DNA from: Actinomycetota bacterium
Lineage (GTDB): Bacteria; Actinomycetota; UBA4738; HRBIN12
Assembly (NCBI GenBank): GCA_036281075.1
Contig: DASUPO010000098.1
Coordinates: 5,082 to 69,081 of the forward strand
DNA length: 64,000 nucleotides
Direction: 5' to 3'
Part shown: in pieces, positions 4,497 through 11,665 of the stretch
How the letters are laid out: each line of letters starts with the position of its first letter
How positions within the stretch are numbered: position 1 is the first letter of the stretch
Translations under genes and position numbers: made by a program
Notes under the pieces: generated by a model
What the model saw: only the letters and a program-made list of their open reading frames with translations
What the model was told of the DNA's origin: nothing
Databases searched by the model: none

Positions 4497-5645
4497 ATGC
4501 GCATCGGCATCCTCACGGGCGGCGGGGACGTGCCCGGGCTGAACGCGTGTATCAAGGCGGTGACCAACCGGGCCGTCGCCGACGGCCACGAGGTCGTCGG
4601 GATCCGGCGCGGCTGGGCCGGGCTCCTCGAGCTGGATCCGAGCGATCCCGACGGTGCCGCCACCCACACGCTGAAGCTCGACCCCGAGGTCGTCCGGACG
4701 ATCGACAGGACCGGCGGCACGATCCTGCATACGTCGCGGACGAACCCCGCCAAGGTCCGTCCCGCCGACGAGCCGGACTTCCTCAAGGCCGGCCGCGTGA
4801 AGGACGAGGCCCGCGATCACACCCAACACGTCCTGAGGGTCCTGGATCAGGTGGGCATCGACGCGCTCGCACCGATCGGGGGCGACGACACGCTGTCGTT
4901 CGCCCTCCGGCTGCACGACGAGGGCGTGCCCGTGGTCGCGATCCCGAAGACGATGGACAACGACGTCCACGGGACGGACTACTGCATCGGGTTCTCGACC
5001 GCGGTCACGCGGACGGTGATCTTCATCCACCAGCTCCGGACCAGCGCTGGGTCGCACGAACGGCTCGCGGTCGTCGAGGTGTTCGGCCGGTACAGCGGCG
5101 AGACCTCGCTCGTGTCCGCCTACCTCTCCGGGATGGACCGCGCGATCATCAGCGAGGTTCCCTTCGACGTCGAGAAGCTCGCGACGCTGCTGATGGACGA
5201 CAAGCGCAAGAATCCCTCCCGCTACGCGATGACGACGATCTCCGAGGGCGCGCACTTCGTCGGCGGCGAGATGGTGATGGGCGGGACCGCCGACGCGTAC
5301 GGCCACCGGAAGCTCGGCGGGATCGGCGCGCAGACGGGTGAGGCCCTGAAGGAGATCACCGGCGAGGGGATCATCCACCAGCAGGTCGGCTACCTGATGC
5401 GCTCGGGCTCTCCCGACGCGCTCGATCTCATGGTCGCCACGAACTACGCGGTGATGGCCGCCGACCTGCTCCTGGAGGGCACGCACGGGCGGCTCGTCGC
5501 GCTCCGGAACGGGACCTACGTGAACGTGCCGGTCGAGGAGGTCCGCCGCGGCGTGAAGCGGGTCGACGTCGACGCCCTCTACGACACAGACGAGTACCGG
5601 CCGAAGATCCGCCACGTCGACGGCAAGCCGATGTTCCTCTACTGA
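4497..5645 (+). CDS. pfp: 6-phosphofructokinase paralog with PPi-type signature residues
   Basis: [22 protein letters not shown] opens the protein. GGDDT (Asp at the position that is Gly in ATP-PFKs) and PKTMDNDV (Lys) are the residues associated with PPi dependence. Confidence 0.8.
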
Positions 5646-5781
5646 GGAGGTCCCGACGCCGGTTCCCGAGCGAGTCGTCGAGCTTCAGCGCGAGCTCGAC
5701 GAAGGTCCCAGGCCCATTCCGCTTCATCCACCGGTTGAGCAGCGACCGTCGATCACCCAAGTCTCGCTAGACTCGCGCTCG

Positions 5782-8127: not shown

Positions 8128-8964
8128 CTAGCCCGCGGGTGCGAAGGTCCGCAGACGGGCGATGTCGGCACGCTGGCGGGCCGCGTCGCCCGGTGTCTCG
8201 AGGATCCAGGGGACCGAGCCGAGCAGCGGATCGGTCGCGAGGGCCCGCCATCCCCGTTCGCCGATCAGGCCGTCCCCGATGTCCGCGTGACGGTCGCGGC
8301 GAGCGCCGCGCTCGAAGGCCGCGTCGTTGGCGTGGACGAGGCCAAGTCTCGAGGCGAGGCCTCGCGCACGGAGCTCCCGGGAGAGGACGCCGACGCCCGA
8401 GGGATCGTCGAGCGGGACACCGGCGGCGAAGAGATGCGCGGTGTCGAGGACGATGCCGAGCCGCTCGTCGACGGCGGCGACGAGCTCCTCGGCCTCGTGG
8501 GGAAGCGAGGCCACCGCGCCGGTGGTGCCCGCCATGAGCTCCGCGAGGACGCGCACGCGATCGGCCTCCGCGACGGCGAGCCGGTAGCTCTCCGCGGCGG
8601 CCCGCAGGGCCGCCTCGCGGCTCTGCGGGCCACCCGCGCCGGTGTGGACCACGAGGTGGTCCACACCGAGCGCGTCACAGGCGCGGACGGTTCCGAGGAT
8701 CAGCTCGCGCGTCCGCCGAAGGATCTCCGCGTCCCACGACGCGACGTTGCCCACGTAGGAGAGATGCGCGACGCACGGACGGAGCCCGCTCGCCGCCAGC
8801 GACCCACGGAAGCGGGCAACATCCTGGTCCGAGTACCGAGGACCTGCCCACGCTCGCGGGTTCGAGACGAAGATCTGCAGACAGTCCGCCTCCCGGAGAC
8901 GGGACTCCTCGATCGCCCCCTCGATGCCCGTCTGCCGGCGCCGGACGTGGGCGCCGAGGATCAC
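8128..8964 (-). CDS. nfo: endonuclease IV / AP-endonuclease family 2 (xylose-isomerase-like TIM barrel)
   Basis: LVHANDAAFERGARRDRHADIGDGLIG matches the EndoIV metal-site motif (HxND...DRHxxIGxGxIG). The start overlaps the kinase stop by 4 nt. Confidence 0.75.
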   Translation of the reverse strand: MILGAHVRRRQTGIEGAIEESRLREADCLQIFVSNPRAWAGPRYSDQDVARFRGSLAASGLRPCVAHLSYVGNVASWDAEILRRTRELILGTVRACDALGVDHLVVHTGAGGPQSREAALRAAAESYRLAVAEADRVRVLAELMAGTTGAVASLPHEAEELVAAVDERLGIVLDTAHLFAAGVPLDDPSGVGVLSRELRARGLASRLGLVHANDAAFERGARRDRHADIGDGLIGERGWRALATDPLLGSVPWILETPGDAARQRADIARLRTFAPAG

Positions 8965-10841
8965 GCGTAGTAGACGGTGATCGTGGATCCGTAGCGGACG
9001 CGCGTGCCGGGAGCGGGGAGCTGGCTCACGATGTTCCCCCCGCTGCTCCCCGGGACCGGGAGCGCCGTGACCTCGAGCCCCGCCCGCCCGGCGAGCGCCT
9101 TCGCGTCGTCCACGCTCATCCCGAGGAAGTCGGGGCTCGGGAAGTGCTCCGGGCCGAGGGAAACCGTGAGGATGACCGTCTCGCCGGGTTGGAGCTCCGT
9201 CCCGGTCCCGGGGTCGGTCGCGATCGCGCGGCCCTTCGGCACCCGATCCGAGAACGTCTCCTCGATCACGACCTCGAAGCCCGCCGCGGCCAACGCGTCC
9301 ACCGCCTTCGCCTCCGCCGTGCCCGCGACGTTCGGCACCGGGACGGGCCGGGGTCCGTCGCTGACGACGAGCGTCACCGACGTGCCCTGCGGGAGGACCG
9401 CCTTCCCGGGCCGGACGGCGATCACGCTGCCCGCCCCGGCCTCGTCGTGGAAGCGGTGCCGTACCTGGCCGATCTCGAGGCCGGCGTCGACGATCGCCGC
9501 TCGCGCCTTGGGCAGGGGCCGACCGACCACCCTCGGCACCCGCACGGGCGGTGGACCTTTCGAGGGCAGGACCGAGATCGTCGTGCCCACCTCACGTTCC
9601 GTGCCGGGTCTCGGGAGGATCCGGAGGACGCGTCCCTCCCGGATCGCCGGGTGGAACTCGCCCTCGAGCAGCCGCACCTCGAACCCCAGGGAAGTCAGCC
9701 GCGCCACGGCGTCGTCGACGGGATCGCCGCGGAGCGCCGGGACCCTCGCGGTGTGGGGGATCGCGTACGTCCACGTGCCCCAGGCCGCCCCAGCGAGGAG
9801 GCACAGCAGGAGGATCGCTCCGACGACGCGCTTCAACAGACGCCGGCGACGTCGCCGGCGTTCCATCCGGGGGATCGCCGCCGTTTCCAGCCGCACGCCG
9901 ACCTCGGTCGTCTGGCCGCCCTCGACGGTGATCGGCGGGATCTCGTCGACCAGGGCGGCGAGCGCGCGGGCGGGCGGGAGCTGGCGCGCGATCACGTCCA
10001 GGTCCATCCGCATCACGTCGGCCGACTCCGGCCGGAGCTCGCGGTCACGGTCGGTCGCCGCGGCCACGAACCCGTCGAGCTCGGCGGGCAGATCGCCGAC
10101 GAGCGACGACGGGGCGGGCACCCGATCGGACAGGTGCTTGTACGCGACCGCCATCGCCGTCTCGCCCGTGAAGGGGAGCTTCCCGGTGAGCAGCTCGTAG
10201 GCCACGATCCCGAGGGAGTACAGGTCGCTGCGAGGATCGGCCGGCTCTCCACGGATCTGTTCGGGCGCGAGGTACTGAACCGTGCCGGTGACGGCGCCCG
10301 CCTGGGTCACGCGACCGTCCGCGTAGGCGCGCGCGAGGCCGAAGTCGGCAACCTTGACGACGCCGTCGTTCGTGACGAGCAGGTTCTCGGGCTTCATGTC
10401 GCGGTGGACGAAGCCCTCGTGATGGGCGTGGCCGAGCGCGAGGAGCGTCTGGCGGAGGACCTCCGTCGCCTGTGCGGGCTCGAGCCGTCCTTGCTCGTTC
10501 AGGAGGTGGCGGACGCTCGGCCCGCGCACATACTCCATCACCATGTAGTAGACGCCGTCGACCGCGCCCCAGTCGTAGACGCCGACGATGTTCGGGTGGG
10601 CGAGGCCGGCGGCGGCACGTGCCTCCCGCCGGAACCGGTCGACGAACTGTGGGTCGCCCGCGAGAGAGCGGTGGAGGACCTTGACCGCGACCTCGCGAGC
10701 CAGGACCGCATCGTGCGCGCGGAAGACCTCGCCCATGCCCCCCGCGGCGATCCGTTCCACCATGTGGTAACGGCCGTCGAGGGTGACGAACGTCTGTCCC
10801 CCGCCGTGCGTGGGCGCCGGCTGCGTGGTACTCCTTGCGAT
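8961..10841 (-). CDS. pknB: Ser/Thr protein kinase with C-terminal PASTA repeats (PknB-like)
   Basis: Hanks kinase motifs are present: GGMGEVF, VAVK, HRDMKPENLL, DFGLA and APE. A TM segment and three or four PASTA repeats follow. The first ATG is at 10763 (MVERIAAGGMGEVF), but the conserved N-terminal L.GRY.. motif lies upstream of it. No ATG, GTG or TTG occurs in any frame for 97 nt upstream. The likely start is the in-frame ATC at 10841..10839, 6 nt after the SD GGGAGGAG. Confidence 0.85.
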   Translation of the reverse strand: MARSTTQPAPTHGGGQTFVTLDGRYHMVERIAAGGMGEVFRAHDAVLAREVAVKVLHRSLAGDPQFVDRFRREARAAAGLAHPNIVGVYDWGAVDGVYYMVMEYVRGPSVRHLLNEQGRLEPAQATEVLRQTLLALGHAHHEGFVHRDMKPENLLVTNDGVVKVADFGLARAYADGRVTQAGAVTGTVQYLAPEQIRGEPADPRSDLYSLGIVAYELLTGKLPFTGETAMAVAYKHLSDRVPAPSSLVGDLPAELDGFVAAATDRDRELRPESADVMRMDLDVIARQLPPARALAALVDEIPPITVEGGQTTEVGVRLETAAIPRMERRRRRRRLLKRVVGAILLLCLLAGAAWGTWTYAIPHTARVPALRGDPVDDAVARLTSLGFEVRLLEGEFHPAIREGRVLRILPRPGTEREVGTTISVLPSKGPPPVRVPRVVGRPLPKARAAIVDAGLEIGQVRHRFHDEAGAGSVIAVRPGKAVLPQGTSVTLVVSDGPRPVPVPNVAGTAEAKAVDALAAAGFEVVIEETFSDRVPKGRAIATDPGTGTELQPGETVILTVSLGPEHFPSPDFLGMSVDDAKALAGRAGLEVTALPVPGSSGGNIVSQLPAPGTRVRYGSTITVYYA

Positions 10842-10921
10842 GGTGCTCTCCTCCCTAGGGAAGCGCCCGAGGCAGGTCGGAGCGCGTCCGGCGCATCGTA
10901 CCGCCGGACCTGGAGCGAACC

Positions 10922-11665
10922 GTGGAAGCTGAGGGAAGTCCGACCGTCGCGTCCTCGGGCGGTCCTGGTGCCCAGCTCGACCGGATCGAGGTGGCCGTCG
11001 ACGCCGGCGACATCGACCTCCGGCGGCTCGGCTTCTGGCGGGTCGTCCGGCTGATCAAGCTCGACGACGAGCTGATCGAGCGCCACGCCGAACAGGTGGG
11101 GAGGATCGACGCGAAGGCGTTCCGCGAGCACTTCCCGATCCTCGTCCCGGTCTGGCTGGGGAACGCGATCCTCGGCCTGCTGATCCTCGTCGGGATCCTC
11201 GCGATCGCGTTCGCCGTCGGCGCCGGACCGATCGCGCTCGACGACCCCGGACCCACCGCCGCCGGGTGGAGCCTGCTGGTCGCGGCGGCCGCGTGGATGG
11301 TCGGGCTCCACTCGTCGGCGCACTGGCTGATCGGTCGGGCGGTCGGGATCCGCTTCCGGACCTACTTCGCCGCGTTCCCGCCGCCGCCGCTGCCGGGCCT
11401 GAAGACCGACTACGCGACCTATCTCCGCGCGGGGCCGACGGCGCGCGCCTGGATGCACGGGAGCGGCGCCGTCGCCACCAAGCTCGCGCCGTTCCTCGCC
11501 CTCGCCTTCGCGCCGGCGGCCGGCGCGCCGGCGTGGACGGTGATCGTCCTGCTGGTGACCGGGGTCGGACAGATCGCCACGGACGTGTTCGTCAGCACGA
11601 AGGCGAGCGACTGGAAGAAGGTGCGACGGGAGCTCGCGGTCGCCCGCGCGCGCGCGGGTGGCTGA
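10922..11665 (+). CDS. integral membrane protein (4–5 predicted TM), function unknown
   Basis: GTG start. The hydrophobic segments are ILGLLILVGILAIAFAV, WSLLVAAAAWMVGL, LAPFLALAFA and WTVIVLLVTGVG. It is divergent from the kinase. Confidence 0.5.
   Translation: MEAEGSPTVASSGGPGAQLDRIEVAVDAGDIDLRRLGFWRVVRLIKLDDELIERHAEQVGRIDAKAFREHFPILVPVWLGNAILGLLILVGILAIAFAVGAGPIALDDPGPTAAGWSLLVAAAAWMVGLHSSAHWLIGRAVGIRFRTYFAAFPPPPLPGLKTDYATYLRAGPTARAWMHGSGAVATKLAPFLALAFAPAAGAPAWTVIVLLVTGVGQIATDVFVSTKASDWKKVRRELAVARARAGG

Follow-up and report, generated by a model that had tools for sequence, protein, structure and literature searches.

A Conserved AUC Codon as the Probable Start of a PASTA Kinase Gene in a Clade of Uncultured Actinomycetota

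Where does translation of a bacterial kinase gene begin if its first canonical start codon lies inside the conserved fold of the protein? This question is raised by a Ser/Thr kinase gene of the Stk1/PknB PASTA family in a stretch of 64,000 nucleotides (nt) of an Actinomycetota bacterium (assembly GCA_036281075.1, contig DASUPO010000098.1), which is called the window below. An earlier note, made from the letters of the window, had proposed that the gene either uses a rare AUC start or carries an assembly error. We compared the upstream DNA of 26 orthologous loci, which were obtained by a genome scan, a metagenome scan, and twelve exact-protein look-ups. The comparison indicates that the AUC codon at 10841..10839 is probably the main initiation codon in the window; judged from sequence conservation, the near-cognate start appears to be real and conserved and to extend to the whole kinase family. 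All coordinates of the kinase locus refer to the minus strand. The features on which the argument turns are as follows.

8961..10841, minus strand: kinase gene (PASTA Ser/Thr kinase of the Stk1/PknB family) in its proposed full extent, with 626 codons counted from ATC and a TGA stop at 8963..8961.
10848..10855, minus strand: Shine-Dalgarno (SD) sequence GGGAGGAG, invariant in the ATC clade, with a 6-nt spacer (AGCACC) to ATC.
10839..10841, minus strand: proposed initiation codon ATC (AUC), in frame, 6 nt past the SD; the homologous codon is ATC, ACG, or ATG in orthologs.
10764..10838, minus strand: codons 2-26, comprising the N-terminal tail and the start of the kinase fold (TLDGRYH); dropped if the gene is called from the first ATG.
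10761..10763, minus strand: first canonical start, ATG (Met27), used by gene callers in calls of 600 amino acids (aa).

The protein itself is typical of the Stk1/PknB PASTA kinases. In the 626-residue product, Pfam recognized a Pkinase domain at residues 25-278 (E = 1.6e-52) and four PASTA repeats (E = 1.8e-51), and the NCBIfam equivalog of Stk1/PknB PASTA kinases (NF033483) scored 597.2 bits against a cutoff of 450, with residues 20-527 matching profile positions 4-528. The catalytic motifs GGMGEV, VAVK, HRDMKPEN, DFG, and APE were found at residues 34, 51, 146, 166, and 192, respectively. A hydrophobic stretch (VVGAILLLCLLAGAAWGTW) that follows an Arg-rich run and precedes the PASTA repeats is a candidate transmembrane segment. 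The solved structure of Mycobacterium tuberculosis PknB (1MRU) aligned over residues 21-291 (E = 7e-69). The product is probably a complete PASTA Ser/Thr kinase of the Stk1/PknB type, catalytically competent and approximately 626 residues long.

Counted from the first canonical ATG (10763..10761), the open reading frame spans 10763..8961 (600 codons). The kinase frame remained open well upstream of this ATG, and in a frame plot of G+C content at third codon positions (GC3) the signal of the kinase frame faded at approximately 10800-10850. Because the profile match begins at residue 20 and the 1MRU alignment at residue 21, Met27 lies inside the conserved fold, and the claim of the earlier note that a start at the first ATG costs the conserved N-terminus held. 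Its description of the DNA was equally accurate: the 97 nt at 10860..10764 contained no ATG, GTG, or TTG in any frame, GGGAGGAG (10855..10848) was followed after 6 nt by the in-frame ATC (10841..10839), and translation from this codon gave IARSTTQPAPTHGGGQTFVTLDGRYHM... as claimed. The features of the window alone were within the range of chance, with 9.3% of the 97-nt stretches in this window of 71% G+C lacking all three canonical triplets, and their significance therefore rests on conservation in orthologs.

The sequence TAGGGAGGAGAGCAC[C/T]ATC was unchanged in 15 independent assemblies (the window included) with protein identities of approximately 70-92%. These assemblies came from different projects and samples, and many synonymous differences flanked the shared SD, spacer, and ATC. 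Because 15 independent assemblies share this block, the assembly or sequencing error that the earlier note had offered as one of its two options is excluded. The idea that the ATC is a misread ATG is opposed further by the recurrence of ATC in the distant loci L171-L173 and by isoleucine at this codon in 79 protein clusters, and we consider its probability negligible. Orthologs without the upstream extension, which the earlier note took to speak against its proposal, were not found; the extension was encoded in all 26 loci read as DNA.

The extension evolved as coding sequence from codon 2 on. Synonymous changes were observed at codons 2, 3, 4, 6, and 7 (e.g., GCA/GCT/GCC, AGG/AGA/CGG, and AGT/AGC), and across codons 2-26 variation was exclusively synonymous in 11 codons of the kinase frame vs. 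1 and 1 in the other two frames, with variable sites distributed over the three codon positions as 7/6/16. Directly 5' of the ATC, only 2 of 26 nt were variable among the 15 sequences, and would-be third positions varied at 1 of 9 sites in this leader vs. 16 of 25 sites downstream (Fisher test, P = 0.017). Farther upstream, indels of 1-4 nt, not multiples of three, were found, and the distance between an upstream ATG and the ATC was 55, 56, 57, 58, or 59 nt. The coding signature in codons 2-26 implies that this stretch is translated, a conclusion that the sequence comparison supports well. The switch in pattern at the ATC, together with the frame-breaking indels upstream, places the beginning of translation in the kinase frame at or very near the ATC.

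Other clades were aligned on the SD and the conserved peptide that follows it (X-S/A-K/R/N-S-...), where X is the SD-proximal codon. Such an alignment had been suggested in the earlier note as a means of locating the starts, and it placed ATC, ACG, and rarely ATG at X. The codon was ATG in L100 and L084 (spacers of only 3 nt), ACG in L103, L166, L087, L004, L005, and L170 (spacers of 6-7 nt), and ATC in L171/L172 (spacer of 7 nt) and L173 (5 nt), the last three having only approximately 50% protein identity to the window. In every clade, a GGAGG core preceded the ATC or ACG by 5-8 nt. The two ATG-bearing orthologs mark X as a start site. Residue X was readable in 93 of 240 protein clusters (the best 120 of each of two protein searches), where it was Ile in 79 and Thr in 14; Met, Val, or Leu was never found among these 93. 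Near-cognate codons at X are therefore the rule for this kinase family. L170, L171, and L172 contained no in-frame ATG, GTG, or TTG from the upstream stop codon down to the Met in the glycine-rich loop (GGMGEV). A start at this Met would remove strand beta-1 and the loop itself and cannot give a working kinase. The rare AUC start, the other option of the earlier note, is thus supported by the conserved SD and ATC, by the coding signature, and by the homologous codons: two orthologs have ATG, six have ACG, and a distant clade without any canonical alternative has ATC once more.

The leader also contains an ATG that lies 36 nt beyond the 97-nt interval considered in the earlier note and was missed there. 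It overlaps a conserved hexamer.

10855..10896, minus strand: upstream ATG (10896..10894) and an out-of-frame upstream open reading frame (uORF) of 13 codons (MRRTRSDLPRALP), ending in TAG at 10857..10855, which overlaps the first G of the SD.
10895..10900, minus strand: TAnnAT hexamer TACGAT, predicted -10 element; every clade has TACGAT, TAGAAT, TAGGAT, or TACCAT, and variation is confined to the middle positions.

Several observations weigh against an AUC start. GGAGG is frequent in the window (356 sites in 64 kb, both strands), and in a G+C-rich genome this frequency is too high for an SD alone to count as evidence. The canonical Met27 lies 26 codons downstream, and a start there, which may give a shorter product, would cost only approximately 3 residues of strand beta-1. 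The upstream ATG was in frame, at a distance of 57 nt, in 63 of 98 informative clusters, which is above the chance expectation of one-third, and in these genomes it could act as a canonical start, provided that the transcript includes it. The assignment of the hexamer as a -10 box is drawn from its pattern of conservation. The doubt that remains about the AUC is due in part to the downstream ATG and to the upstream ATG that is often in frame.

If the upstream ATG (10896, in TACGATG) were the real start of the family, the protein would have 644-645 aa and begin with MRRTRSDLPLERFPREESTIARS..., and the window and other out-of-frame genomes would represent frameshifts in a short C tract. These could be errors, signs of decay, or a phase-variable switch that alternates between a long, well-expressed form and an AUC-initiated form of poor expression. 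The in-frame clusters indeed gave calls of 644-646 aa beginning with MRRTRSDLPLERFPREESTIARS, NCBI annotation takes the upstream ATG or an earlier start, L004 and L005 also have the ATG in frame, again at 57 nt, and the changes in length fall in the C-rich run. When the frame state was mapped by Fitch counting on a tree of the 98 clusters (unweighted pair group method with arithmetic mean), we observed at least 20 changes, compared with 29 for random labels; such frequent flips would fit a switch, and they also count against a family start at this ATG. On the other side, no purine-rich SD precedes the upstream ATG in any clade, and its overlap with a hexamer of -10-box pattern means that it may be untranscribed. 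L103 and L166 (TAGAATC) and L173 (TAGGATT) lack the ATG, because C or T instead of G follows the TAnnAT there; in L100 the ATG lies out of frame, its reading frame closes after 9 codons, and a proper ATG stands at X. The ATG was found in all three frames across orthologs and in frame in only 2 of the 15 ATC-clade sequences. Four proteins (P0006, P0010, P0014, and P0060) read the same leader nucleotides in a different frame, which shows that the nucleotides are conserved and not the peptide, and the near fixation of would-be third positions in the leader (1/9 vs. 16/25 downstream) also opposes a coding leader. Purifying selection acts on the intact kinase of 600-plus codons that genomes with the ATG out of frame retain. 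Among these genomes are all of the nearest relatives of the window (88-92% identity), each with an intact kinase, and the C runs, at 2-5, are short for a slipped-strand switch. We therefore regard the leader as non-coding and the upstream ATG as most likely part of the promoter, and the excess at 57 nt is explained more simply by a most frequent leader length than by selection for frame. A family start at the upstream ATG is unlikely, and it is retained because of the excess of in-frame genomes.

A start at the first canonical ATG (10763) would yield the 600-aa kinase, with the 26 preceding codons forming an untranslated leader or with AUC and AUG27 both used to give two isoforms. An ATG is an initiator approximately 50-times to 100-times stronger than AUC, Met27 is kept in most members of the ATC clade (with Val, GTG, in L082 and L168), and the kinase fold would be shortened by only approximately 3 residues. 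These points are countered by the kinase-frame coding signature in codons 2-26, by the extension of the profile and of the solved structure upstream of Met27, and by the lack of an SD 5-10 nt ahead of ATG 10763. In other orthologs, moreover, the position of Met27 is Val, Ile, or Leu, and there is no start codon at all in L004, L005, and L170 (ATC-GTC) or in L087 (GTC-GTC). Exclusive or shared use of this ATG is quite unlikely as the main explanation, and a minor second isoform may arise from Met27.

The AUC start fits the following mechanism. The leader, predicted to be approximately 45-50 nt long, would be transcribed from a promoter with the -10 box TACGAT (10900..10895), and the strong invariant SD GGGAGGAG, 6 nt upstream, would position the AUC. 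The initiator formylmethionyl-tRNA would pair with the A and U of AUC and tolerate a mismatch at the third base, and the protein would begin with Met. In Escherichia coli, AUC initiated at 1-2% of AUG, ACG was among the 57 remaining codons (0.1-1%), and mass spectrometry found N-terminal Met for both AUC and ACG (Hecht et al., bioRxiv 10.1101/063800). Initiation factor 3 (IF3) discriminates against weak codon-anticodon pairs, and a second-base mismatch, as with ACG, is poorly tolerated by IF3 (PMC10158994). Initiation at the AUC would be expected at approximately one hundredth of the AUG rate and would respond to proofreading by IF3. With a strong, ideally spaced SD ahead of a weak codon, synthesis of the kinase would be low but reliable, and the arrangement likely serves to hold a membrane kinase at a low, tightly set dose. 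Overproduction of such a kinase is harmful in mycobacteria. The arrangement would be ancestral to a large clade of uncultured Actinomycetota, some of them annotated as Solirubrobacterales, in which the codon is ATC or ACG and rarely ATG.

A close parallel is infC, the gene of IF3, which has an AUU start in E. coli and many other bacteria and in which near-cognate initiation is a dosage and autoregulatory device. In both cases, a codon other than AUG, GUG, or UUG, of the AUN class, is conserved behind an SD and kept across many species, and by analogy the kinase would also show low expression that depends on IF3 proofreading. The two cases differ in that the present gene encodes a signaling kinase rather than a translation factor, which gives no reason to expect a direct autoregulatory loop, and in that the codon is AUC or ACG and not AUU. 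The architecture of a kinase domain, a transmembrane helix, and four PASTA repeats is shared with M. tuberculosis PknB and with Stk1/PrkC/StkP. M. tuberculosis PknB has a canonical start, and the Streptomyces homologs found in the scan differ in starting at a GTG 15 codons before DGRY. The kinase gene also differs in location, because it lies outside the fhaA-pstP-rodA-pbpA-pknA-pknB operon, between a divergent membrane-protein gene and nfo. The E. coli reporters of Hecht et al. resemble the present case in that AUC and ACG behind a good SD initiate with N-terminal Met; they were engineered, whereas the arrangement described here is natural and conserved over a clade spanning approximately 50% protein identity. 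In the literature searched, we found no report linking PASTA kinases to non-canonical starts and nothing specific on ATC starts in Actinobacteria.

Natural conserved AUC starts, and above all ACG starts, have very seldom been annotated in bacteria. The kinase family described here, which has a central role in cell-wall sensing, seems to rely on them as a whole, with ATC, ACG, and ATG interchanging at one site. It is a natural test case for protein dose set by near-cognate starts; its weak codons are paired with a strong SD at ideal spacing. The consequences for annotation are systematic. Public annotations of these kinases differ at the N-terminus by up to approximately 80 residues (671-672, 644-646, 600, and 588-591 aa); the calls of 671-672 aa pass through the promoter into the divergent gene, and those of 588-591 aa begin inside the glycine-rich loop. 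The disagreement was seen in P0007, P0013, and P0171 (NCBI) and in P0001-P0005 and P0125-P0129, among others. In the set of 240 clusters, 45 were called from MGEV and were thus cut into the glycine-rich loop, approximately 48 more began with M/V-x-[DE]-R-I-A-A-G-G, which truncates them at strand beta-1 or shortly ahead of it, and many of the others ran on through the promoter region. For these Actinomycetota, ATC and ACG behind a strong SD should be admitted in start-codon models.

Two further details of the start region were observed in orthologs. The spacer of the ATG-bearing orthologs (L100 and L084) was a sub-optimal 3 nt vs. 5-8 nt for ATC or ACG, a difference between two sequences and the remainder that may reflect compensation between codon strength and spacing. 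In L103 and L166 (also P0116-P0120), the sequence ACG TCC AAG AGT ATG places an ATG four codons past the ACG, approximately 18 nt from the SD; the fifth codon, which corresponds to this ATG, is ATC or ACC in the clade of the window.

The leader contains two additional elements.

10879..10890, minus strand: 12-mer CGGACGCGCTCC, the best-conserved non-coding element of the leader, 4-8 nt past the TAnnAT box.
10858..10885, minus strand: candidate leader hairpin, GCGCTC (10885..10880) with GGGCGC (10868..10863), plus CTTCCC (10863..10858); C-rich loop.

With no more than 1-2 changes, CGGACGCGCTCC was present in 25 of the 25 leaders that were complete at the 5' side (L084, the remaining one of 26, is cut short), including clades at approximately 50% protein identity; the loci concerned fall within L001-L005, L081-L087, L100, L103, and L161-L173. 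The 12-mer could be an operator, an initial transcribed sequence, or an arm of a leader structure. The TAnnAT box agrees with TANNNT, the actinobacterial -10 consensus. A consensus scan for promoters and terminators, with a tool that requires a -35 box, returned nothing.

The loop of the candidate hairpin is the length-variable, indel-prone C-rich tract, and the pyrimidine tract CUUCCC that comes after the hairpin is complementary to the GGGAGG of the SD. In the window, the 3' arm is GGGCGC (vs. GAGCGC), which gives a G-U pair. Across orthologs, 92% of cells paired for GCGCUC/GAGCGC, with two G-U variants and no compensatory double changes, and shuffles gave equal values. The RNAalifold consensus of the leader was weak (-2.7 kcal/mol), and the single-sequence fold was no better than shuffles (z-score of 0.23). 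A permissive Rfam scan of 10700..11000 gave chance-level matches only (DnaX, 11.7 bits with a gathering threshold of 35; snoU82P, 10.6 bits with a threshold of 42). A hairpin is compatible with these data, and a regulatory role of the leader is possible. It is conceivable, if doubtful, that the TAnnAT box, the CGGACGCGCUCC element, the hairpin with its variable loop, the SD-complementary CUUCCC, and the AUC/ACG start together form a dedicated translational control of PASTA-kinase dosage in this actinobacterial clade. The output of such a device would be set by the fidelity state of IF3 or the ribosome or by a factor that binds the 12-mer; cell-wall signaling would thereby be coupled to growth or stress state, and the system would be tuned or switched by indels in the C-rich loop.

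Two other arrangements were considered for the leader and rejected. A leaderless mRNA was dismissed on the grounds that a conserved SD precedes the start and that no canonical codon is found there; a TAnnnT box at -12..-7 was absent for both the upstream ATG and ATG27. A programmed frameshift or a uORF-kinase fusion was dismissed because the upstream ATG occurs in all three frames and the DnaX frameshift model scored far below its threshold. A search of the window for further near-cognate starts behind an SD returned one other candidate, an ACG at 5656 (plus strand, 5644..5660) with GGAGG, 5 nt, and an in-frame ACG 42 codons before the first canonical start. It was rejected because the threonine-aldolase-like gene begins at ATG 5782 with a typical N-terminus (MSSFRVDLRSDTVTKP) and because the SD-like site falls at the end of the gene before it, overlapping that gene's stop.

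The kinase gene is flanked by two genes.

10922..11665, plus strand: multi-pass membrane protein of 247 aa, family unassigned; GTG start at 10922, divergent from the kinase gene and supported by the GC3 frame plot.
8128..8964, minus strand: endonuclease IV (nfo), downstream of the kinase gene (TIGR00587, 151.8 bits vs. a cutoff of 129.65).

The membrane protein had no Pfam or NCBIfam match. A divergent gene was found at the same place in the orthologous look-up loci, mostly with 230-246 aa (it was cut or differently called in two), and thiE (TMP-TENI) lay beyond it, except in L170, where this position is off the contig. Because the divergent GTG is only 21 nt from the TAnnAT box of the kinase gene, the two promoters must overlap. 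On the other side, the position of nfo was conserved in orthologous loci, with a Pfam AP_endonuc_2 match wherever the gene was complete on the contig. The kinase TGA overlaps the GTG start of nfo as GTGA (8961..8964), which suggests that translation of nfo is coupled to that of the weakly initiated kinase.

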